Virus record (IMG/VR): IMGVR_UViG_3300024317_000004
Coordinates: 1-64,000 of that record
Strand: one strand, 5' to 3'
DNA length: 64,000 bases
DNA from: a virus
In this document: positions 2,268 through 64,000 of the stretch, piece after piece
Layout of the letters: every line of letters begins with the position of its first letter
Position numbering within the stretch: position 1 is the stretch's first letter
Notes under the pieces: model-generated
Told to the model about the DNA's origin: nothing
Database searches by the model: none
The model's input: the letters and a program-made list of their open reading frames with translations, nothing else
Position numbers and translations under genes: made by a program

Positions 2268-2875
2268 GTGATGACCTCCGCGGGCTCGGCCGCCAACGCG
2301 GCATCCATGGCAGTCGCGAGCGAGTCGGCTCGTCCGGTTTTGGTGATCTTGTAGTGCATCGCGTCGAACTCTCGTCGGCCAGGCGGGCTTTTGAGCGTTT
2401 TGGTGCTCCATCCGACTTCGTCGTTGTTGAAGCGAAAAGGCGTCGACTCGAATTGATACCCGCGAGCTTCCCACCGAACCGTTTCGCCTGCGCGGAGCCG
2501 TGTTTCGACTTCCTTGGGCGTTTCCTGATGGTCGTACCCGTGCAGCTCGACGACGATGGCACTGTCGTCGCAGCGCGCATCCATCGTCTGCCCCCGGCGT
2601 ATCCAGGCGTCGAAATCGTCGTTGGGCGTGGTGGATCCCGTGAGGTAATGAGGCTTGCTCCCGCCGTAAACTTCCTTGTACGGCCTGCCGCCAGCTAGGT
2701 AGTCCTCGGCCGCGTGAGAGAGCGCGTCACATAGGTGCGGGTGTTCTCCGTAGCCCACCAGCGTGCCCGTTGGTCTCTCAAGACGCACCACGCGTAGGCC
2801 ACCGCCAGAGAGGAATGCGTGCAGGCGTGCGCCATCCCACAGGGCCTTGTCGAGCGTGTTGAGATAGTAGGTCAC
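2264..2875 (-). CDS. Hypothetical protein (203 aa)
   Basis: Long coupled ORF with globular composition. Confidence 0.65.
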   Translation of the reverse strand: MTYYLNTLDKALWDGARLHAFLSGGGLRVVRLERPTGTLVGYGEHPHLCDALSHAAEDYLAGGRPYKEVYGGSKPHYLTGSTTPNDDFDAWIRRGQTMDARCDDSAIVVELHGYDHQETPKEVETRLRAGETVRWEARGYQFESTPFRFNNDEVGWSTKTLKSPPGRREFDAMHYKITKTGRADSLATAMDAALAAEPAEVIT

Positions 2876-3488: not shown

Positions 3489-6193
3489 CCACGCCGGTCG
3501 ATCTCTTCTCGCACGGCCTTCAGAGCGCTCACCATGTGCGCTCCCGTTTCAACCATGCGCTCGGCACAGATCTGCGCGGCTTGCTCTTTGGTGACCAAGT
3601 CGGGGCCGTATTTGAAGAGCGTGTTGTACAGGTGCTTTGTGACCTTGCACTCCGCGAGCCTGGTCCGCAGTGCCTGCGCCGGCGGCATGGAGTCGGCCTG
3701 CTCGATTGCCGCTCTCTCGGGGTCCGCGCTGTCGTTGGCAGGAGTGCCGTTGGGCTTGGGTCCACCGCTCGGCGGCTCGGGATCCTTGGGCGCCAACGCA
3801 TTCTTGAGCCACCGAGATGCCTGTTTTGCGTCGGCCATGCCCGGCACGAGTTCCTGGACACGTCGGACCGCGACGTTGCGCAGTAGCTCGCGAACTTCTT
3901 CGGCTCGCAGATCAATGGCCGGCTTGTGCTTGCGCACGATCTCCGCCACGTCCTCGGCAGAATCAGCGAGCTCGAGCAAGTCCATGACGTCGGTGAAGAC
4001 GTTGTCGCGCGACGTCTCGCGGGTCTCGATGGCTTGAACGTGTTCATTGAGTTGGTTGCGAGTCGCGCTGGCTTTCGTGACATCGAGAACGAGCTTCTGA
4101 GCGCGATAGATGTACGTGTCGAGTCCGCCCGCTTCCTCGCCTACGGCATCCTTGTGCACGCGCCAGACACGCGCGGCTTGTAGGAGCTTGGTGTCAATGA
4201 GCTTGAGCGGCTCAAGATCCTCGCGCAAGGCGTCGAGCGCGGGGGCGTCGCTATCCCCAAGACCCGTGATGACCAACGTGTGGACTTCCTCGGGCGCGAT
4301 GTCATCACGGGCCACAGGCGGCTGCGCTGTCGTCGTGGCGTGGTTAAAAGGATCGTGCGAGCCAACGCGTGCGTCTTCTTCTGCAATGGCGCGCTTTAAC
4401 CACGCCTTGGCGTTCTTCATCTTGCCGACGTCTTCGCAGCGCTTGCATAGGACTTTCCAGGCCGCCTCGCGGTCAGCGGTCGACAGGGCCGATAGTTCTG
4501 CCCGGTGCTTGATCCAGAGCGCCACGGTCTCGCCGGGTAATTCAACCTGTTCAACGTCCGCGTAGAAGCTTGCGAGCGTGGGTGAGATCTCCGTCTCAGA
4601 AGGCGGGTCAGGCTCAACGAAGACCTCGTCAGGCTTCTGCGTAATCTTGATCGGCGCGCCCGCGCTCTTGAGATGAGCCGGGATGGTATCGAGCTCGCTT
4701 TCATCAAGCATGCCGAGCCCGAGAATGGACAACGTGGCGCGTCGCTTGGCCTTGGTGTTGCCGGTGATGGTGATACGTCCGTTCTGACGCATGACCCACG
4801 TGCCGTGCTTGGTGGTTGGGCACCAGACCGGCTCTTCGCCATCTGGCGTTAGAGACAGGTTGCTTCCGCGGACATAGGCACAATCCAAAGTCTGTTGGGT
4901 CGGGACTTCTCCCGTACTGGACATCCCCGGCTTACCAAGCGCGATTCCTTCAAGCGTGGCCAAAATGGCCCATGCCTCCATCACACCGGGCTTTCGCTTC
5001 TTCCCAAAGCGACCTTTGCTGTCCGCGTCTGCTGCCATCATTGCACTAAACATGGCGGCTCTTGCTTCCGCGGAAAGCTGGGTCACAAGAACAGGCATGT
5101 CCGCTGGCCCTTCAATGCCCGCACTCATGAGAACGAATCTCGACTCGTCAGCACTGAGATAGAACCAGTGCTGCGGCAAGCATTCGTACGAAGCCCCGCC
5201 CGGAAAGACCCGAACCGTTGGTTGGCCTACGTCCTCGCGAGCATGAAGGCCAGCACGAGCAAGCAATTCCCGAATCTCTGCAACTCGGCGAGGTTTGGAC
5301 TGACAGATCCCAAGCCGCACAAAGGTTCCTCGACGCTGAATCGTTCCATCGGTCATCACCCAACCAAGTACGGCGGCGAGTTCGGGTGTTAGTGGATGAC
5401 TACCGCCCTCCGCAGGCGCAGCCACAATTAGTCTGTGGCTTGTCCGGATCTCGTTGGCTTTAACCAGTTTTCGCTCTGGCCCTCTGTCCTTGCGAGGGCC
5501 ACGCGGAGCTGCTGCGCCTCTGCACGGCTTGTATGGTTCGGTACCAACTGCCCACGAATGGTCTTCGGTGCATCGGACCGAGAATAGGTTTTTCTCGGTC
5601 GACAGTTTGAAGACCTTTGCGTTTTCGTAAACGCTTACGTTCTCCAGCGGAACCCACTCAGAACGGCCGGTATTCACATCGTACGCAAGGACCGCTTCGC
5701 CGATCATGAGTTGATCGTGACGTTTGAATCCGCGGCGAGTCAGGATCTCACTGCCCAGCGGAACACATTCGACCTTCATCATCGCATTGAGCGGATCGCT
5801 GAGTGCAACCGTGGCCACGGCAGTCTCGGTTCTGCCATTCGGATGCGTAGCGCGACACACAGCGTAGAGAAGCTTGGTGCCTGCAAGATCGACAACGCGA
5901 GGGCCGTCAACGATCTCGCGATTGAGCCGGTGAATGGCCGCGAGCTGATCGGTCGCGCCGCGTGTGGGGTACAGAATTTCCTTGCCGTTGAGCCGTAGAA
6001 TCGCAAACGGCAATGCGGCAGGCGTGAGCCCAAGGCTTTCACAGATCTGCAGATAGAACCGCGATCGCTCCTCGGGATTGAGCGCGGATATGTCCCCGCG
6101 AAGCACAAGCGACTCGACAACCCGCGCCGTGGTCTGGGTGTCGATCTGAATGTCTGCCCGGTCACTCTTCTGGATCGACTTGACGTTACTCAT
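3461..6193 (-). CDS. Phage single-strand annealing/recombination protein (RecT/Red-beta-like) with intein and long C-terminal extension
   Basis: GDISAL...FY..ICESLGL.P...F..L.LNGK..LY; after splicing it reads NAMMKVE|TKAKRRATLSILGLGMLDESE. Located in the early-left operon. Confidence 0.7.
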   Translation of the reverse strand: MSNVKSIQKSDRADIQIDTQTTARVVESLVLRGDISALNPEERSRFYLQICESLGLTPAALPFAILRLNGKEILYPTRGATDQLAAIHRLNREIVDGPRVVDLAGTKLLYAVCRATHPNGRTETAVATVALSDPLNAMMKVECVPLGSEILTRRGFKRHDQLMIGEAVLAYDVNTGRSEWVPLENVSVYENAKVFKLSTEKNLFSVRCTEDHSWAVGTEPYKPCRGAAAPRGPRKDRGPERKLVKANEIRTSHRLIVAAPAEGGSHPLTPELAAVLGWVMTDGTIQRRGTFVRLGICQSKPRRVAEIRELLARAGLHAREDVGQPTVRVFPGGASYECLPQHWFYLSADESRFVLMSAGIEGPADMPVLVTQLSAEARAAMFSAMMAADADSKGRFGKKRKPGVMEAWAILATLEGIALGKPGMSSTGEVPTQQTLDCAYVRGSNLSLTPDGEEPVWCPTTKHGTWVMRQNGRITITGNTKAKRRATLSILGLGMLDESELDTIPAHLKSAGAPIKITQKPDEVFVEPDPPSETEISPTLASFYADVEQVELPGETVALWIKHRAELSALSTADREAAWKVLCKRCEDVGKMKNAKAWLKRAIAEEDARVGSHDPFNHATTTAQPPVARDDIAPEEVHTLVITGLGDSDAPALDALREDLEPLKLIDTKLLQAARVWRVHKDAVGEEAGGLDTYIYRAQKLVLDVTKASATRNQLNEHVQAIETRETSRDNVFTDVMDLLELADSAEDVAEIVRKHKPAIDLRAEEVRELLRNVAVRRVQELVPGMADAKQASRWLKNALAPKDPEPPSGGPKPNGTPANDSADPERAAIEQADSMPPAQALRTRLAECKVTKHLYNTLFKYGPDLVTKEQAAQICAERMVETGAHMVSALKAVREEIDRRGWKRSRRAA
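4757..5767 (-). mobile_element. Intein (337 aa) with LAGLIDADG-like homing endonuclease region
   Basis: Starts CVPLGSEILTRRGFK; block B CTEDHSW; VLGWVMTDG; block F PVWCPTT; ends ITITGN followed by T. Confidence 0.9.
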
Positions 6194-6371
6194 CGCTCCC
6201 ACCGCCCTCCTGCCTCGCCCAGTGCCTCAGTACTCGCTCCAGTGCTCTACATGCCTTGTTGCACCGCTCGCCCGCGTACTCGTCATCCTCGCTGTCGAGT
6301 AGATCCAGCGTGACCTTGTCCACAAGCTCGCGCGCCTGCAGGATTGCCTTCTTGCGCTCCTCGGGGCTCAT
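6186..6371 (-). CDS. Hypothetical protein (61 aa)
   Basis: MSPEERKKAIL...; its 3' end supplies the GGAGG RBS of the next gene. Confidence 0.5.
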   Translation of the reverse strand: MSPEERKKAILQARELVDKVTLDLLDSEDDEYAGERCNKACRALERVLRHWARQEGGGSDE

Positions 6372-6575
6372 GCGAACGCTCGTACCACCGCGCCCACCAC
6401 CCACAGCCGCAACACGCCCCGCGTGATCCGCAGACGCAGCTTGTTGCCTCCGAACATCTCCGCCCACGCACATCCTGCTTCCACCGCTTCGAGCCATTCG
6501 CTATGTGACATCGCCCACCTCCGTTGATACCGAGCGCGATCCCTGCGCAGAGATCGCCCACGCTACCGACGGCCC

Positions 6576-20728: not shown

Positions 20729-20810
20729 GAAGTGGTGCCCGAGCGGTTCAAGGGGTCGCGCTGTAAACGCGATGGCTACGCCGACGTGAGTTCGAATCTC
20801 ACCCACTTCA
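20729..20810 (+). tRNA. tRNA-Tyr(GTA), long variable arm, CCA not encoded
   Basis: Acceptor GAAGTGG/CCACTTC+A; anticodon stem TCGCG/CGCGA with loop CTGTAAA; T-arm GTGAG-TTCGAAT-CTCAC. Confidence 0.92.
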
Positions 20811-54691: not shown

Positions 54692-56932
54692 ATGACCACA
54701 GCACCGAAGATTATTGCCCTGCAGTCTGCGGGCCCCGGAGTCCTGACGGCCGTTCTTGAGACCATCAACCAAGAGCCCAAGGGCTCTCAGCCAGACGTCC
54801 TCGACCTGGATCCGGCGCACTGGACGGTCAATGGCGCGCACCCAGTTGCGATCCACCGGTACTCATTGCCATGGTACGAGCAACCCAAAGCCGCAGACGG
54901 AACCTACGAGATCACGGTTCGTCACTCGGTGTTCTTAACGCTTGGGCAGCCTTTCGTAGACGCGACGTCCTACGCGGTTGCGTGCCCTTATGGGAACGCT
55001 GGGCTTGTGTTTGGCAATAGGACGACGTTCGCGTCGTGCATCAAGACCAACCAGTCTGCGTATGCAAAAGCATCCACCGCGCGGTTCGCGAACCTCGGGG
55101 TGTGGCTCGGCGACGGGGGCCCGATGGCCCTCAGTCCTTTGCCGGCGTACGAAGTCATTCGCGAGTCGGATGGCGCGGTCATCTACAAAGGAACCGCCGC
55201 GGCGGGCATCGATGACACTGGGTTAGCGGGGCCTAAGAGCGGGGAAATTGTCCATCGCCTGGATCTGAGCGCAGTCCCCGAGGGCGGCGCTTATTTTGTG
55301 AGTGTTCCGGGTATCGGCAGAAGCCGATCGTTTTGGGTTGGCGGCGACGTTGAGCGCAGGACCGCCATCGTTGCACTGCACAGCTTGACGATCGCTCGGT
55401 GTGGGCAGGAACTCAAGGAACCGTGGTCGCCATGGGCAAGGCCTGCGTGCCACCCACGCGTTACGGACGCGCGGTCACCCTATCCGGGCAGCGGGTTTAT
55501 TCAGGTACCCAGTGGCGCGCAGACATTCGAGATGCGCGGCATGCGGCACGACGCCGGGGACTTTGACAGAAACCCCAACCACGCCATCATTCCAATCTTA
55601 CTGCTTACCTACTTCGAAGCGTGGCCCAGTCACTTCACCGATCGGCAGTATGACATTCCGGAGTCTGGAAACGGCACGCCGGACCTGCTGGACGAGGCCC
55701 TTTGGGATGTCCTGGGGCTTGAGCATCTCCAGATTACCGATGCGAATGACCCGCTCAATGGCGGAGTTCGCAGCGGTACCGAGCAAGCGCGCCATCCAGA
55801 CTACGGAATTGATAACGCGGTACTCGACAAGGGTGTGTACTCCACGTGGGGGGTGGACGGTCAGGCTGATTCGCCCGGCGAAGGCTTTACCGCCTTTGCG
55901 GCCGGGATCTTTGCTCAGGCAAGTCGATTGGTTCGCCCCTACGACGCGGCACATGCAGACGATCTGCTCGGAAGAGCACGTCTCGCGTGGGGCTATCACG
56001 CCAGCCACAACACCGCGACGGCGATCAAGGCATACAATCTTTACGCCTCGCTTCAGCTCTATCTGACGACGGGCGAAAGCCCGTTCCATGATCTGTTCAA
56101 GGCGCAAGCGAACGCGATTCTCGTAAAGGATGGCAGTTGGCCCGTTCAGTATCGAGGCGGCAATCTGGCCGCGAAAGTGCAGACCGTGCACTTTGCCTCG
56201 TACACGCTACCCACATCACGCGCTGTCGATGCGACGTTGGTCGATGCGATCAAGGCACGCGTGATTCGGGAGGCCGACCAGGGCGGGTATCACGGAATTC
56301 ATCCGCTCACCGACCCATATCCCGTGGGTGCAACGAAGTTCCTGGGATACGGAGCACTGACCGCACCGGGCCGGAACGACGCAGATGCGTTTGCGAGTCT
56401 CTACGAGACCGACCCCGCCAAGAAGCAGCAGCGCATCAACAAGATGAGCCTGCTTGCTGACGGCATCCTTGGACTCAATGCCATGGGCATGAGCTATGTG
56501 GTCGGCATCGGGACCGATCAACCGAATTGCCCGGGGCACCTGGATAGCTTCTTCGCGGAGAAAGACACGCTCCACCCCATCCCAGGTGTCATGGTGTACG
56601 GGCCGAGCGAAGGACGCAGCGGCTACGACTACCAGATGACCATCACGAACAAGCTCGTTCCCTCCTACGAGCAACTGCCAATTGGCAGGCGTTTCGTGCA
56701 TGCCTGGGCATCGATTTTAAACGCGGAAGACACCATATGGGAGGTGCGCGTCTGGTTCGCCGTCCTGATGGCCTTCCTCCACGACGCCTCCAAAGACCCT
56801 GCACCCACGCTCCCGCCTCCGCCACAGCCGAGTACCGGCGTCACGCTCACAGCAGACCAATGCGATCGGTTTACACGTGCTGTTAGCGACCTCAACGCGA
56901 TCCGCGACGAGCTGGGCTTGAAAGCCAGCTAA
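54692..56932 (+). CDS. Glycoside hydrolase family 9 with N-terminal Ig-like domain
   Basis: HDAGDFDR, PESGNG.PDLLDEA.W, LG.N..GMSYVVGIG, E.TI motifs. Confidence 0.88.
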   Translation: MTTAPKIIALQSAGPGVLTAVLETINQEPKGSQPDVLDLDPAHWTVNGAHPVAIHRYSLPWYEQPKAADGTYEITVRHSVFLTLGQPFVDATSYAVACPYGNAGLVFGNRTTFASCIKTNQSAYAKASTARFANLGVWLGDGGPMALSPLPAYEVIRESDGAVIYKGTAAAGIDDTGLAGPKSGEIVHRLDLSAVPEGGAYFVSVPGIGRSRSFWVGGDVERRTAIVALHSLTIARCGQELKEPWSPWARPACHPRVTDARSPYPGSGFIQVPSGAQTFEMRGMRHDAGDFDRNPNHAIIPILLLTYFEAWPSHFTDRQYDIPESGNGTPDLLDEALWDVLGLEHLQITDANDPLNGGVRSGTEQARHPDYGIDNAVLDKGVYSTWGVDGQADSPGEGFTAFAAGIFAQASRLVRPYDAAHADDLLGRARLAWGYHASHNTATAIKAYNLYASLQLYLTTGESPFHDLFKAQANAILVKDGSWPVQYRGGNLAAKVQTVHFASYTLPTSRAVDATLVDAIKARVIREADQGGYHGIHPLTDPYPVGATKFLGYGALTAPGRNDADAFASLYETDPAKKQQRINKMSLLADGILGLNAMGMSYVVGIGTDQPNCPGHLDSFFAEKDTLHPIPGVMVYGPSEGRSGYDYQMTITNKLVPSYEQLPIGRRFVHAWASILNAEDTIWEVRVWFAVLMAFLHDASKDPAPTLPPPPQPSTGVTLTADQCDRFTRAVSDLNAIRDELGLKAS

Positions 56933-58796: not shown

Positions 58797-59594
58797 ATGG
58801 AAAAGTGGAGTGAACCGAAAGGGCCACCACCGCGATGGCTCGACCTTGCCGACGAAGTCACGGCCGACGAGCCGAAGCCGCCTCGTGACCAGTTCGTCGT
58901 GGCGTGCATGGAGGCGTGCTTGCGACTCGATTGCAACCCGATGCAAGCGGCAGGCGTCACGGCCAACGTGATGAACGAGAGTGCGTGGGGGCAGTCGTAT
59001 CGCGGCAATAACTTGGGTGGCTGGAAGATCTACGAGCACTACGCGATCGCGTATCGCAAGGCTCATGGCAAAGGACCACGCTGGTGGCGCGGTCCCGGCA
59101 ACAAAGCGCCTGGGGCCACACCGAAAGACCTCAAAGGGGGCGATCCGCCGTGGTGCTTCTACAGAGCGTTCGAGTCCATCGAGGACTTTCTCGCGAGCTG
59201 GCTCAAGACGTTCGTTCCAGAGCCGCCCCTTGGTACGCCCTCTCGCGAGAGCAAAGGCGATCCCGCAACGGGTGATTACCGACTTGCGGGTGAACGATTT
59301 TGGGGCCGTCGGGCCAATTGGTTCGATGCCATGGTTGCGGCCGGGTACAAGGGCTCGCGCACCGAAGCGAGTCCCGAGCAAGCGATTGCCGAACATCACA
59401 GTTTGGTGCAGTCCGCCTTAACTCGCTGGGGGCAATCACGTTTAGGCGTGACGGCTGACGGAGCCTGGGGGCCCAAAAGCAAAACGGCCTGCGCCGCGTT
59501 TCAGGCTTGGCACGGACTGTCGGTCACGAACATTCTAGACGACGAGACGCTGGTTGCTTTGGTGCACAGCAAACAACAGCCCCAACCAGAGTGA
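58797..59594 (+). CDS. Endolysin: lysozyme-like (GH73-type) domain plus peptidoglycan-binding domain
   Basis: ESAWG....NNL.G.K...YRAF.S...AGY; LGV.ADG.WGP.S......FQ..HGL. Confidence 0.8.
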   Translation: MEKWSEPKGPPPRWLDLADEVTADEPKPPRDQFVVACMEACLRLDCNPMQAAGVTANVMNESAWGQSYRGNNLGGWKIYEHYAIAYRKAHGKGPRWWRGPGNKAPGATPKDLKGGDPPWCFYRAFESIEDFLASWLKTFVPEPPLGTPSRESKGDPATGDYRLAGERFWGRRANWFDAMVAAGYKGSRTEASPEQAIAEHHSLVQSALTRWGQSRLGVTADGAWGPKSKTACAAFQAWHGLSVTNILDDETLVALVHSKQQPQPE

Positions 59595-59605
59595 CCTGGT
59601 TGGGG
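59580..59605. terminator. Hairpin at the convergence of the late operon and the array transcript
   Basis: CCCCAACCAG-agtgac-CTGGTTGGGG. Confidence 0.55.
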
Positions 59606-60374
59606 CCATTCCCTGTCCCTTCCGCTCCTTTGCAGTCCTGCCCCATCCGCTCCATTGCCATCGGTTGCAATGAGGCCCGTTCCTCTCGTAGCCCCTCCCG
59701 TCCTATCCATTCCACTCGGTTGCTGTCGCTTGCTCTCCCCTCCGTCCCCCTGCTTTGCCCGAGCCTTCGCCCGGCTCCGATGCAGCACGCTGCACCCGAG
59801 TCGAGCCACCGGCGAACCGGCGAACTCGGGGCCTTTGCGATCCTTTCCCCTGCTGTCCTGACCTGTCCGCATCCCATCGGCTCCCCTCCCCTCCCCAACG
59901 CTCCCCATTAGCGCTCGGGACGAGGCCCGGATTGCTCCGGGCGCCGTTGGGCTCCACTCCTGTCCGGTTCACTCCGTTGCCGCCCTTGCCTCTGCTTTCC
60001 GCTCCCCTCTGCCCCAATGCAGTCCGTCGTTTCCAACGCACTCGCTTGAATGCGCTCGAAACGGCGCTCGCGCGAACGCGATGCCGGCCATTCCGTTCCT
60101 CCCCGGCCCAATCATGTCATTCCCAGGCCGCTCCCATGCTCTGCAGTCGGCCCCCCTCCATCGCGTTCCGCTTCACCCCAGTACACATCCACTCCTCTCC
60201 CCTCTCCAAAGCACCTGAATGCTCTCGAGACGGGACCCGATCTCTCGGGACACGTCGCCTTTCCTCTGCGGTCCGTTCACTTGCTCTCCGGTGCCGTCCC
60301 ATCACTTCCTTTGCAGCCAACTCTCGTCCTGCCCACTCCCCGCTTTTCCTCTCCGCTCCACCCCTCTGCCGTCC
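59606..60374 (-). ncRNA. Array of about five 5-nt-periodic tracts (GGA/GCA + NN)n separated by hairpin linkers; putative guide RNA array
   Basis: Plus-strand NNTCC/NNTGC phase is held over 59609-59803, 59834-59904, 59946-60035, 60090-60205 and 60260-60374. Linkers carry stems; three share GCnCTCGrrACG. Confidence 0.75.
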
Positions 60375-60389
60375 GAAGTCTAAAAAGAA

Positions 60390-60986
60390 TTATGCGGCTT
60401 TCTTTGCTAGGTCGCCGTCCCAGCAAACGACCGCGAAAATCCCGAACGGACCACCACGCTGAACTCTGTAGTCGCCGAGACCGTTTCCGATGCCGGCCTC
60501 TTCGAGCAAGAGCCTGATAGTTGCTTCATCCAAGATCTCCGTACGCAACCGAAGATTGAACTTAGCGCTCCATTCGTCGAGCCGCGCACGATGTCTCATG
60601 ACGCGGCCTTTTGTTGCGGGAATTACGACCGCTCGGCTGTCAACCTCGAAGTCCTTTGCGCGAGTTTTTCGGTCCTTGAGATACAAGGGCACCATGTCTT
60701 CGCAAACCACGCACGCAGCGGGCACGAGATACTTTAAGGACTTGCGAGATCCTCGCTGTTTGTGTCCAGCGCCCATTTCGGCGATTGCGCGGCTAATCCC
60801 AGTACCTGCGATGCATAGTCCGCCCTTAGAGTCGCGATGCGTGCCTTTCTCGGCAATGTCTCGCGGCAACTCTGTGGTGATCTGCACGCGACGTGTTGAT
60901 TTTCCACTGTCCGCCTGCGCCTGATCGCCAAACTTGTGAATCAGCAACGGCGAAACGCCCTCGATCCAGACCTCAATCGTTTTCAC
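60390..60986 (-). CDS. Stand-alone RAMP/Cas7-like (RRM-fold) protein, putative RNA-guided effector
   Basis: N-terminal strand IEVWIEGVSPLLIH and C-terminal Gly-rich loop AGIGNGLGDYRVQRGGPFG; GGAGG RBS; flanked by pentamer arrays. Confidence 0.65.
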   Translation of the reverse strand: MKTIEVWIEGVSPLLIHKFGDQAQADSGKSTRRVQITTELPRDIAEKGTHRDSKGGLCIAGTGISRAIAEMGAGHKQRGSRKSLKYLVPAACVVCEDMVPLYLKDRKTRAKDFEVDSRAVVIPATKGRVMRHRARLDEWSAKFNLRLRTEILDEATIRLLLEEAGIGNGLGDYRVQRGGPFGIFAVVCWDGDLAKKAA

Positions 60987-61000
60987 TTTGCCTCCATTAA

Positions 61001-61074
61001 GCCCTTTCGGGCCCCTTCCATTCCCCCGCTCTCCATCCCCACCACTTGCTCTCCTTCGTGTTCCAGTCCAACGC
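61001..61074 (-). ncRNA. Leader pentamer tract (13 units) ending in a GCCC-GAAA-GGGC hairpin
   Basis: Minus strand GCGTT GGACT GGAAC ACGAA GGAGA GCAAG TGGTG GGGAT GGAGA GCGGG GGAAT GGAAG GGGCC. Confidence 0.7.
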
Positions 61075-61078
61075 GCAC

Positions 61079-61106
61079 ACTATACGTACTTTGTACGTAC
61101 AAGCAA
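61079..61106 (-). promoter_or_regulatory. Promoter of the RAMP-like/array unit with palindromic operator
   Basis: TTGCTT-16 nt-TATAGT; spacer holds TACGTAC-TTT-GTACGTA. Confidence 0.7.
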
Positions 61107-61107
61107 G

Positions 61108-61272
61108 TTACTTCTTTACTTCTCGTAGCAATCGTCTTGCTTCGAACAACGCAATGCGTCTGACGAACGACGACACATCTTCACCTGATAATTCTGCGGC
61201 TTTCGCGAGATCTCGCTTTTCCGCTTCCGTGAGACGCAACTCGAGACGCGCCGACCGACCGGACTCAACCAT
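61108..61272 (-). CDS. Ribbon-helix-helix (DUF1778-like) regulator, 54 aa, absent from the ORF track
   Basis: MVESGRSARLELRLTEAEKRDLAKAAELSGEDVSSFVRRIALFEARRLLREVKK. Confidence 0.75.
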   Translation of the reverse strand: MVESGRSARLELRLTEAEKRDLAKAAELSGEDVSSFVRRIALFEARRLLREVKK

Positions 61273-61971
61273 AGGCCAATCATACGGCTACCATACGTAC
61301 ATGGCCACGGCGATATCACGGAAGGTTACAGAAGCACGTAAAACGACGGCGCGGCTCAAGGAGCTTGGCTACAAGCTAGGGCAGTGGGTAGACGCCCCGC
61401 CAGCCGACGTGCCATAGTTCGACCGTTCGGCACGACGTTGTCCGTGACGTGTTGAGCTCCTGAGACGGCCTGGTCACCCGCCAGGCCGTTTTGCTTTTGC
61501 GCTAGACATCCCGCCGTCACGCTGGCACAGTCCCCATCAGAAGCGTTTCTCGCAAGAGGAACTACCGCACGATTCGCCCTGGCCCTCACCGGCTAGGGCG
61601 TTTTGCTATTTCTGGCACGCCGTGCGACGGTCCATCGTACACTTTCACACGTAGATGGGACTGATACGAGGCCTTGGCATGGTGCTGAGGCCTTTTGTTT
61701 TTGTGGCACACTGGAGCCAAGGGATCCGCTGCTCTGGATTATCCCGGGGATAGCAGGTCGCTTACCTAAGGCACGCCGGTCCGTGGCACAGAACCGCGGG
61801 CCGGGGTGTTATGCTTGCGTCAATCCGTTTGCCTGGGCGATGGGCCCGCGCACGTAACAGGCGTAGGGCCACACGGAGTGGGATCCGCGTTACGCGGGTC
61901 GTGCACAGACCCGGAGGCGAAAGCAGCCGGGTGCTTGTGCATGCGAGTTTGCGGGGAGTTTGAGGGAGCCT

Positions 61972-62850
61972 TCACATCTCGCCCAACGCTCGTGCCATGG
62001 CCTCGGCGACGCGTTTCCAGTCGTATCCCTGCACGTGAATCGTCACGCTCGCTTCGACGGTCGAGCCGTACGTAATCTGGATCTCTTGCCGCCGCTCAGT
62101 CGCATCGACGGTAACGACGCGACCGTTGATCAGTGCGCTGTACCGTCCCCCGTTCAGATCTTCCCATACGACATCGCTCATAGTTTTTGTGTCCCCTTCC
62201 CCTTCCAACAACCTCGTTTGCAGTTCTGCCGTCTCGGCATACATGAGGCATTTGCCGGTAAACTTACCATTGCTATAGATTGGCAAATCGTGGAATGGGT
62301 ATTGTTCCAAGGATCGCCTTACCATCTCATTGGTCTCGGCAGCATTGAGGTACTGTCTCGTCTTATTCAACCACACGTACTCGTCATCCGTAGTTGCCGA
62401 TGGGCCAGAAACAAAAGCATACGCTTGTCCGTAGGCTATAGCGTTAACGAGGACGCTGCTTACGCCAAACATTTTGCCAATCTTCTTCGTGGATAGGCTG
62501 TGTGTTCTGTAGATTTTTCTAATCTCTCTTACCTCATCGTCACTCAGCTTCCTGTATTGCCTCCCCTTCTCGATCATGTCCTTTGTGTTGGCTTTAGAGT
62601 CGCCTACGAATAGGTGGCCCCAGTTGCAGCAGGGCGGGTTGTCGCATGAATGGCAGATGAACATTCCGTCGGGAATAGGACCAACAGCGAGTTCCCACGC
62701 GGCCCTGTGAGCCGCGTATTGTTTCTTGCGATCTTCCCAGTAAACGCGGCCGTACCCGTTTCTATTTGTAGGCCCAGTCCACACGATGCACCCGCTATCG
62801 TTGTCGTGGGTGCACTTCGCATAAAGATCGCTGATCGTTTTCAGCATCAT
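61972..62850 (-). CDS. HNH homing endonuclease with HTH and extra C-terminal region
   Basis: CIVWTG...GYG...AHR.AW....G.IP.G..ICH.CDNP.CCN..HL..G....N..D...KGR. Confidence 0.9.
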   Translation of the reverse strand: MMLKTISDLYAKCTHDNDSGCIVWTGPTNRNGYGRVYWEDRKKQYAAHRAAWELAVGPIPDGMFICHSCDNPPCCNWGHLFVGDSKANTKDMIEKGRQYRKLSDDEVREIRKIYRTHSLSTKKIGKMFGVSSVLVNAIAYGQAYAFVSGPSATTDDEYVWLNKTRQYLNAAETNEMVRRSLEQYPFHDLPIYSNGKFTGKCLMYAETAELQTRLLEGEGDTKTMSDVVWEDLNGGRYSALINGRVVTVDATERRQEIQITYGSTVEASVTIHVQGYDWKRVAEAMARALGEM

Positions 62851-62858
62851 CTTGGCCT

Positions 62859-63110
62859 CTAACTTCCTGCCCGTTTCTTTGATTTCTTCTCCTGACCCCA
62901 TCCTGGCTTGCGCAACGTAAGCCCCTCGGCAAGCTCGGGCTGTTCTTGCACCCACGTCTGCAGAGTGCGCCTGCCGATCCCGAGCCTCTCGGCGGCTTTG
63001 GGCACGCTGCCTTCGGCCTTCAGCGCCCTGCTGATCTTCAGCCTGAACGCCTCGGGGTCCGTTGCTCGCAGGGCTAGTAAAGCGTGCGTGGCGGGATGGG
63101 TGATAGCCAT
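62859..63110 (-). CDS. Fis-type HTH regulator
   Basis: ALKAEGSVPKAAERLGIGRRTLQTW. Confidence 0.8.
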   Translation of the reverse strand: MAITHPATHALLALRATDPEAFRLKISRALKAEGSVPKAAERLGIGRRTLQTWVQEQPELAEGLTLRKPGWGQEKKSKKRAGS

Positions 63111-63215: not shown

Positions 63216-63515
63216 ATGGACACAGCGACGATGGCAACCGGCACCGAGCAGTGGGAAATCGAGCATGACGAACTCGTTCAGGTCTTCGAAGAGATCGCCA
63301 ACGAACACGCTGCCCACTGGGAGAGCATTGTGGACGGCCTCGCTTCCGACGAGATCCCTCCCCCGCCCGCCTCGCCCTGGCCCTCGCTCGAAGCTGCCAT
63401 GCGTGAGTGCGAGTACGTCGCCCTGCTGGCCGTCGCGGTCACCCCGAGCGAGCGGTACGTGGTGCGTGGCGACGATGTCACCTGCACGGTCCGACCGGCC
63501 GCGAGGGCATCATGA
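63216..63515 (+). CDS. Acidic hypothetical protein
   Basis: First ORF after the rightward promoter; ATGA-coupled to the next ORF. Confidence 0.55.
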   Translation: MDTATMATGTEQWEIEHDELVQVFEEIANEHAAHWESIVDGLASDEIPPPPASPWPSLEAAMRECEYVALLAVAVTPSERYVVRGDDVTCTVRPAARAS

Positions 63516-64000
63516 GTTACGAAGCAGCCCCCGCTACCGCCCTTGTCGCAACCCACTGCTGTCTCTGCGGGCGCCCGCTGGTCGATGCAGAATCCGTCGA
63601 GTGTGGCGTTGGCCCGGTCTGCCGTCGCAAGTACGGCTACGTGGACGGCCCAGACTGTAACCGCACCGAGGCAAACCGGCTGGTGTACGAAATTGCGGCT
63701 GCCCCGGCTGCCAATGATGTGCCCGGCAAAGTTACAGCCATTCGCCTGCTTGGGTACTACAAGCTCGCTGAGAGGCTAACCGAGCGGCTCCTATCGAACA
63801 TGGGCACAGTCCTGGTTACCTATGAAGCCGACACGATGGTGATTGAATCCGACGGGCTCACAGATGACGGTTTTAAGGTCCTGCTAGCCATTCTGCGCTC
63901 GGTGCCGGGTCGTCGTTGGGATGCTAACCGCCGGGTCAATACCGTTCCCGTGAGCCAGAAGCGCGCACTGTGGGATGCGCTCCGCAGCAAGATGCCGGCG
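63512..64000 (+). CDS. DUF6011-like Zn-finger protein with HARP-like domain (runs off the window)
   Basis: CCLCGRPLVDAESVECGVGPVC; later LRSVPGRRWD.....VP; frame open to the window end. Confidence 0.65.
   Translation, partial: MSYEAAPATALVATHCCLCGRPLVDAESVECGVGPVCRRKYGYVDGPDCNRTEANRLVYEIAAAPAANDVPGKVTAIRLLGYYKLAERLTERLLSNMGTVLVTYEADTMVIESDGLTDDGFKVLLAILRSVPGRRWDANRRVNTVPVSQKRALWDALRSKMPA

Follow-up and report, generated by a model that had tools for sequence, protein, structure and literature searches.

Hairpins between the five-base repeat tracts of a soil phage locus: probable 3′ tails of VIPR guide RNAs

VIPR (Viral Interference Programmable Repeat) is a CRISPR-like system of RNA-guided DNA silencing that was first published in 2026 (10.64898/2026.04.26.720920). 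Where that report sets out its architecture, the module comprises a small phage RAMP protein flanked by guide RNAs (vrRNAs) built of GGY-NN units, with a conserved, structured 3′ tail to each repeat tract. One protomer is described per unit, and the NN bases read DNA with every third base skipped (10.64898/2026.04.26.720920, 10.64898/2026.04.26.720927). In the relevant passages the tail is treated as required for complex formation, and each studied vrRNA ends in one (10.64898/2026.04.26.720920, 10.64898/2026.10.15.759431); guides directed at vipr genes are described for relatives of phage SUSP1 (10.64898/2026.10.15.759431). As to how arrays are divided into units, the passages concerned address only ribozyme-interspersed and ‘staggered’ forms, the latter with vrRNAs that abut without linkers (10.64898/2026.04.26.720920). 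Here we describe a locus in IMG/VR record IMGVR_UViG_3300024317_000004 in which stems between five-base repeat tracts are very probably the folded 3′ tails of guide RNAs in a phage VIPR array. The window analysed is the first 64 kb of this 72,417-bp record, which is rated complete; terminase, portal, and major head protein genes were recognised, and the carrier is an uncultured 72-kb tailed phage from soil.

The Vipr protein and the five-base repeat tracts

The stems and tracts occupy a 0.8-kb non-coding gap (59579-60389) between the final late gene, an endolysin with a peptidoglycan-binding domain (58797-59594, plus strand), and a convergent 198-aa open reading frame (ORF) on the minus strand (60390-60986) that belongs to phrog_4652, a family whose function is unassigned in PHROG. 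The plus strand of the gap is 67% pyrimidine, and its minus strand contains 43.5% G and 23.7% A. Judged from sequence profiles and a structural model, the 198-aa gene is vipr, encoding a RAMP (Cas7-like) protein: a profile of 28 homologues matched PDB 36pp_D, ‘SUSP1 Vipr protein’, over its full length (residues 1-186; E 1e-8), the single-sequence match between the two proteins indicated a distant relation (E 7e-4), and the AlphaFold model (pLDDT 83) matched Csm3/Cas7 chains in Foldseek (E ~7e-6, TM ~0.5). The ORF has no Pfam or NCBIfam name. By alignment, the residues whose contact roles in SUSP1 are given in 10.64898/2026.04.26.720927, where that structure is described, are kept (SUSP1 H17 as H17, K33 as R32, R138 as R133, D177 as D172, W178 as Y173, and R179 as R174), and such a protein should polymerise along repeat tracts.

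The alignment of the 28 homologues was used to recover 80 viral and 80 metagenomic loci (hereafter, the 160 related loci). A period-5 G array was present on the sense strand of the gene in 78 of the 80 viral loci, usually abutting the gene; the remaining two were L039 and L087, and the contig of L087 stops 4 nt past the gene. A second array caller found arrays in 150 of the 160. The protein of the closest relative, P0002, is 86% identical to that of the window, and the others reach no higher than about 55-59% (viral) or 54% (metagenome contigs). Neither blastn of 59400-61100 against deposited phages nor single-protein queries of viral contigs with Vipr or the endolysin returned matches or close relatives, respectively.

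The repeat code of the gap was read on the minus strand, where units of five bases, G-[G/C]-A-N-N, run in register. Over 796 nt, the period-5 power of minus-strand G was 3.47 (shuffle mean 0.25, maximum 1.69 in 1000 shuffles), and the 25 strongest period-5 windows of the 64 kb all lie in 59571-60281. Period 3 was absent from the tracts (power 0.01), and a coding reading of the gap was rejected on that ground and because the 235-aa plus-strand ORF there belongs to no family; G-quadruplex and R-loop origin readings were considered and dropped, as was a period-5 blip in ordinary sequence in the rest of the phage genome (L024, ~5011). Five tracts follow vipr on the minus strand. T1 (60257-60389) contains ~23 units and closes with GGC, with A at position 3 in 19 of 26 units; T2 (60087-60207) consists of a 4-unit stub, a register shift, and ~19 units ending in GGC (period 5 matched by 1 of 500 shuffles); T3 (59943-60034), defined by period-5 analysis and register counts, has ~17 units and a final GGC; T4 (59831-59896), the weakest (7 of 500 shuffles), has ~14 units, opening with three of GGGGA and closing with GGC; and T5 (59607-59757) has ~29 units, with G at the first position in 24, G (22) or C (7) at the second, A at the third in 24, and two variable positions, together with an internal 6-bp hairpin (59655-59675). 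The GGA motifs of the tracts are phased and largely unpaired.

Compared with the type II VIPR of SUSP1 (an Escherichia phage; Vipr, vap1, and vrRNAs; PDB 36pp), the locus is alike in its stand-alone RAMP protein with contact residues kept, in placing a single vrRNA before the gene and an array after it, all on the gene’s strand, in its five-base units of a fixed triplet plus NN with a structured 3′ tail to each tract, and in the one-base skip in codon register of guides aimed at vipr. It differs in its triplet, G-[G/C]-A (A ~0.70, Y ~0.10) against GGY in SUSP1, and in its tails, each a stacked pair of hairpins whose loops are GNRA or UUCG (the pseudoknot of the SUSP1 tail is taken up below); tract length also differs, and no vap gene was recognised, as discussed below. 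Closer by protein are the GGY-type loci of the same Vipr clade (L038, L083, L181, and L174), whose Vipr proteins are 45-59% identical and which likewise have multi-tract arrays that flank the gene directly and a covarying, GNRA-capped hairpin tail between tracts; in these, however, position 3 is a pyrimidine and the tail is a single hairpin of another sequence family, and certain substitutions in helix 1 and the G-loop are confined to the window protein and P0002.

The locus shares with Class 1 CRISPR crRNAs the outline of a RAMP polymer on guide RNA, a structured conserved handle, and a multi-unit transcript, but lacks 24-40-nt direct repeats, cas genes, and contiguous spacers, has a period of 5 rather than 6 nt, and spreads its guide information over dinucleotides. 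A CRISPR array was rejected, since only degenerate direct repeats (62-81% identity) and 18-19-nt linker motifs were found and no cas genes were among the neighbours. An array of vrRNAs interspersed with hammerhead ribozymes was rejected as well: no ribozyme family matched in 59400-61300 at E up to 10, where the only hit was a spurious human lncRNA match (HOTTIP_1, 25.4 bits against a gathering score of 50) on three GGGGA units (59858-59896, minus strand), a low-complexity artefact. At gathering thresholds, Rfam matched only the tRNA described below. The window thus belongs to a family already in print; what is fresh is the GGA triplet with matching changes in the base-3 pocket, the two-hairpin tails, and the very long tracts.

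Structure, covariation, and strand of the tails

The initial annotation described four stems, all of which are present in the sequence and are partly among its listed inverted repeats: CCCGAGT/ACTCGGG (59795-59830, stem 1), GCCCGGA-ttgc-TCCGGGC (59925-59942, stem 2, extendable to 59920-59947), CGGC..CGCG-cgaa-CGCG..GCCG (60062-60086, stem 3), and GACG..CCCGA-tctc-TCGGG..CGTC (60229-60256, stem 4). The GCC that follows every stem on the plus strand can be read directly, and the motif GCnCTCGrrACG that precedes three of them and the 18-mer common to two linkers (at 60047 and 60216) each fall into a direct-repeat family. Searched in degenerate form among viral contigs, the 18-mer gave 22 single matches, about the number expected by chance, in mostly coding-looking sequence (pyrimidine 0.43-0.58), and no related linker. 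The functional minus strand, the strict 5-nt period, and a second covarying hairpin in each linker had not been described, and the motif noted before the stems is the plus-strand image of that second hairpin.

On the minus strand, GGC closes each tract and is followed directly by an imperfect hairpin (hairpin 1), which is the stem of the initial annotation; in it, a mismatch or internal loop separates an outer stem of 4 bp from an inner stem of 5-7 bp that is capped by a tetraloop. In tail A (60205-60256), hairpin 1 (60256-60229; stem 4) is capped by GAGA and followed by hairpin 2 (60228-60205; -25.2 kcal/mol, z -2.39); in tail B (60030-60086), a UUCG-capped hairpin 1 (60086-60062; stem 3) precedes hairpin 2 (60061-60030; -30.9 kcal/mol, z -2.77); and in tail C (59893-59947), hairpin 1 (59947-59920; stem 2) has a GCAA loop and hairpin 2 spans 59919-59893 (-33.2 kcal/mol, z -3.0). 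These three share the two-hairpin fold, with 2-3 of 200 shuffles folding as well. Tail D (59758-59830; -45.5 kcal/mol, z -2.79) is larger and has three hairpins, stem 1 (59830-59795) enclosing a UUCG-capped inner stem. With the GAAA of a leader hairpin upstream of vipr, the hairpin-1 loops are therefore GNRA or UUCG in five of five cases on the minus strand and in none on the plus strand; with nine such loops among the 256 possible, five in a row would arise by chance with a probability of ~5e-8. Hairpin 2 lies directly after hairpin 1 in tails A, B, and C and has a 6-9-bp stem that also covaries (four compensatory pairs), and its outer pairs (UC/GA, UUUC/GAAA, CCC/GGG) include the first GG(A) of the following tract.

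Covariation was examined among the paralogous linkers of the window. When hairpin 1 of tails A, B, and C was aligned, 83.9% of 31 cells paired and 5 of 11 pairs changed on both sides, a level reached by 1-4 of 500 shuffles, and slid controls paired at 17-53%. In the GGY-type relatives L038, L083, and L181, the inter-tract tails form a GNRA-capped hairpin in which 90.5% of 95 cells pair (0 of 500 shuffles; slid controls 32-58%), with 6 of 12 pairs compensatory; judged by alignment, this covariation is independent support for the tail reading. The tail family of these GGC-type relatives (L038 4660-5212; L181 1937-2246; L083 4760-4814) has a conserved outer stem and a covarying inner stem, and its tracts run to ~20 units. 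None of the sequencing runs listed for the locus was an RNA run; it was present in contigs of three soil DNA runs, but those of runs X2 and X3 are near-identical fragments and thus carry no covariation information; the sole variant within the array, C>T at 59677 in one low-depth X2 contig, alters the second G of one minus-strand unit.

The functional strand is the minus strand, because the arrays of relatives lie on the vipr sense strand, the terminator is on the minus strand, the fold z-scores favour it (z -5.5 for the whole region, against -1.8 on the plus strand), and stable tetraloops occur on it alone. Plus-strand folds of tails A, B, and C (-16.0, -22.3, and -25.8 kcal/mol; z -0.9 to -2.0) are 7-9 kcal/mol weaker than their minus-strand counterparts. 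The features had been described on the plus strand, which was the wrong one for the RNA.

By analogy with SUSP1, one Vipr protomer would bind each five-base unit, hide G-[G/C]-A, and present the two variable bases, which would read double-stranded DNA two at a time, skip every third base, and silence the target. The tail predicted for each tract consists of GGC, then an imperfect hairpin of 9-12 bp whose loop is GNRA or UUCG, then a short second hairpin; it may cap the 3′ end of the Vipr filament and stop 3′ exonucleases, thereby defining the unit RNAs, with the last tail presumably doubling as terminator. The locus is thus a clean natural case of hairpin-only tails, with three covarying copies and a terminator version. 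Of the proposal that structured 3′ handles split an array of guide tracts, the handles stand, being in the position of VIPR tails on the minus strand; guides could be supported for two tracts only.

Guides and their targets

For guide reading, the two bases after each G-[G/C]-A were taken as informative and the one-base-skip rule was applied by script. The first 10 units of T1 (guide T1a, 60374-60325) matched vipr codons 42-51, which encode the conserved motif R-(D/E)-x-A-E-K-x-x-Y-R, in codon frame with the skip at the wobble position. The score was 19/20 on the vipr of L174, which none of 300 shuffles reached over ~0.93 Mb, and 17/20 on the phage’s own vipr. Sites scoring ≥16 numbered 17, whereas 100 shuffles gave 1.18 on average and 6 at most, and at the homologous codons of 159 loci T1a averaged 13.06/20 against 5.86 ± 1.45 for shuffles (0 of 1000). 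A second guide, 9 units of the leader tract starting at 61044, matched vipr codons 7-15 (W-I-E-G-x-S-P-L-L), also in frame, with a mean of 10.61/18 at the homologous codons of 158 loci (4.46 ± 1.35 for shuffles; 0 of 1000) and 13/18 on the phage’s own vipr. At least two guides are thus aimed at vipr genes. At one position T1a codes H where the window protein and P0002 alone have H (the consensus is Y in 25 of 26 sequences), and because of this specificity its intended target is probably the vipr of a close relative.

Among the guides of T1b to T5, two self matches at 15/18 were out of frame and within the null, and were set aside. A 9-unit guide from the end of T5 (from 59658; tract end 59607-59662, minus strand) reached 15/18 at 12 sites of the related loci, where the null gave 0.5 on average and never more than 2, and 10 of these sites lie inside the GGC arrays of other phages (L025, L094, L100-L104, L117, and L174). 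This guide may be directed against the vrRNA genes of rivals, or the matches may arise artefactually from the 15-nt period that repeats and guide have in common.

Alternative readings and the base at repeat position 3

The stems might be something other than tails at which unit RNAs end. The array may not be cut at the linkers at all, its RNA staying whole or being cut elsewhere, with the hairpins acting as insulators between filaments, as stabilisers, or as attenuators. This would accommodate the great length of the tracts relative to those in the published passages, the presence in T1 of two or more guide segments that no hairpin separates, and the pairing of the first GG of the next tract in hairpin 2, which is as compatible with a boundary or insulator as with a handle; ‘staggered’ arrays without linkers are also described (10.64898/2026.04.26.720920). 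We nevertheless consider it unlikely, given that the vrRNAs in the published accounts each end in a tail treated as needed for complex formation, and that every tract of the window ends in GGC and a hairpin, including the last, at the terminator.

Readings outside VIPR fare worse. That the plus strand is functional, as a 3′ untranslated region of the endolysin or late operon or as an anti-Shine-Dalgarno RNA, or that the region is a DNA element (origin, packaging site, or R-loop/triplex polypurine tract), appears very improbable: the region does come directly after the last plus-strand late gene, late transcripts may read into it past a hairpin at the lysin stop codon that has no plus-strand U-run, and its purine/pyrimidine asymmetry is strong, but plus-strand folds are weaker overall (z -1.8) with loops that are not stable tetraloops, the array is G-rich on the vipr sense strand in 78 of 80 relatives whatever the neighbouring genes, and the guide-target matches are read from the minus-strand register. 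There is scarcely any likelihood, in our estimate, that the purine-rich RNA acts as a sponge, titrating for instance a GGA-binding protein of the CsrA/RsmA type or, by way of Shine-Dalgarno-like GGAG, 30S subunits, with the hairpins as scaffolding. The minus strand of the gap does hold 56 GGA and 25 GGAG motifs in 796 nt, but the GGA keeps a strict 5-nt register with two variable bases and lies outside the hairpin loops, no CsrB/RsmZ-type Rfam match was found, the adjacent gene is vipr, and a sponge would leave unexplained why the variable bases, read by the VIPR rule, correspond to vipr codons.

The reading of the stems as VIPR guide RNA tails has itself to be set against a number of findings that weigh against it. 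Tracts of 14-29 units exceed the 9-16 of SUSP1 and of vrRNAs in the published passages, and the predicted unit RNAs of ~150-185 nt exceed the published size of <100 nt. Only the first 10 of the 23 units of T1 match vipr and two degenerate units follow, so that tails are not the sole boundaries; T1 seems to hold two guide segments parted by those two units alone. The initial annotation had put forward its four distal tracts as candidate guides against unknown elements, but for T2 to T5 and the second part of T1 no target rose above the shuffled null in the phage’s own 72 kb or the 160 related loci. T1a itself matches the phage’s own vipr at 85% over 10 units (18-19/24 over 12 units), above the self-targeting threshold of 80%; in the passages of 10.64898/2026.04.26.720920 that give this match threshold, self-targeting is not seen in the VIPR systems covered. 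The partial self-match could be self-regulation, or its mismatch could be just sufficient to spare self. Covariation within the window rests on three paralogous copies, of which tail B aligns imperfectly. A pseudoknot like that of the SUSP1 tail did not turn up, although no search was aimed at one. No vap accessory gene was recognised near vipr, where the small neighbouring ORFs belong to no family; some published VIPR systems are said, in the passages concerned, to be minimal. Finally, a purine at position 3 conflicts with the SUSP1 base-3 pocket, formed by helix 1 and the G-loop, which in the structural account ‘sterically excludes purines’ (10.64898/2026.04.26.720927).

In the window, position 3 is A at 0.69-0.71 and C+T at 0.10-0.11, so that the canonical GGY triplet is absent, whereas in the 150 related loci with arrays the pyrimidine fraction has a median of 0.925 and a minimum of 0.63, and A reaches at most 0.34. 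Because the vipr-directed matches arise under the skip rule, A stands in the unit where the published one has Y. The proteins differ as well: that of the window and P0002 deviate together at 17 columns that show ≥75% conservation among the other 26 sequences, and 11 of the 17 fall within helix 1 and the G-loop (positions 60-71 and 164-177). The third repeat position of the locus is thus a purine, and co-varying changes are found in the very pocket that, as published for SUSP1, excludes purines. A midpoint-rooted FastTree phylogeny of 120 distinct sequences (42 of the 160 having been excluded because their sequences were short, contained stops, or were duplicates) paired the window protein with P0002 (support 1.0) within a clade of 24 (0.95), of which 21 others have GGC arrays.

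A five-unit GGANN pattern matched viral contigs at no fewer than 118 loci; most were chance matches or simple satellites, (GGAAT)n for example, but two were further VIPR-like loci, in other IMG/VR phages, where GGA-rich arrays flank unrelated Vipr-like genes. In L271 (~5250-6520, minus strand of the locus; A 0.83; profile E 1.4e-9), the last tract ends with GGC and a terminator hairpin and a second gene lies between the arrays, as in SUSP1; L284 (~2440-2730, minus strand of the locus; A 0.65; profile E 7.4e-7) has a GGA-rich five-base array. Non-canonical triplets also appear in print, where Vipr-like proteins stand by non-GGY 5-nt repeats: 10.64898/2026.10.21.760802 reports 21 clusters and names the motifs GAC, CAC, WGT, and TGH in its main-text passages, GGA not being among those named there, and ‘NNNGG, YNNNG, NNNNG’ are given in a passage of 10.64898/2026.04.26.720920. 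A non-GGY triplet is thus not unprecedented and does not exclude membership in VIPR.

A tentative and rather doubtful proposal is that the lineage of the window and P0002 switched from GGC to GGA by remodelling the base-3 pocket, as a scaffold-code escape in an arms race between phages: its protein and guides on one side, and rival VIPR systems and decoy ‘solo’ vrRNAs on the other, would become mutually unreadable, and the two-hairpin tail, with the first unit of the next tract in its second hairpin, would set the start and stop of each filament along a long multi-guide transcript. Mutual unreadability would follow because the window’s guides aim at conserved vipr codons of rivals. If real, the switch would provide a natural orthogonal scaffold pair, one reading GGC and the other GGA, for the study and engineering of Vipr specificity.

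Transcription unit and neighbouring genes

The VIPR unit would probably be transcribed on the minus strand from ~61080 through a leader vrRNA, vipr, the five tracts, and a terminator (59579-59606). A candidate promoter located by script (61079-61106, minus strand) consists of a TTGCTT -35-like hexamer (61106-61101), a 16-nt spacer, and a TATAGT -10-like hexamer (61084-61079); a consensus scan requiring ≥4/6 per hexamer did not report this site. Within the spacer of this site, upstream of the leader tract, lies the 17-nt palindrome TACGTAC-aaa-GTACGTA (61083-61099), which could be an operator governing the unit. The leader tract (60990-61075, minus strand) contains ~17 GGANN-type units (period-5 power matched by 1 of 500 shuffles) and closes with the GAAA-capped hairpin (61014-60999) directly before the ribosome-binding site and GTG start of vipr. 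At the other end, a terminal hairpin of 16 pairs followed by a U-rich run (59575-59610, minus strand; -26.2 kcal/mol, z -5.1, 0 of 200 shuffles) is the top terminator-like site of the region and overlaps the endolysin stop codon on the opposite strand; this one hairpin is at once the terminator of the minus strand and the tail of the final vrRNA.

Compared with the 160 related loci, none of the neighbouring ORFs was common except an HNH endonuclease, found in 2 of the 160. This 327-aa ORF (61972-62955) is on the minus strand, like vipr, and 1 kb upstream of it. A figure legend in 10.64898/2026.04.26.720920 refers to vap proteins of HNH type, but the ORF has homologues in only two of the related loci, which makes a homing endonuclease the likelier identity. 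The early region past the VIPR unit encodes a small helix-turn-helix protein (62859-63110, minus strand) and a DUF6011 protein (63407-64000, plus strand). Elsewhere in the window, a tRNA gene (20729-20810, plus strand; Rfam 59.3 bits) lies just upstream of the terminase gene, and a 746-aa ORF (54692-56932, plus strand), close to where the structural module ends, has CelD_N and glycoside hydrolase family 9 domains and may encode a polysaccharide depolymerase associated with the tail.

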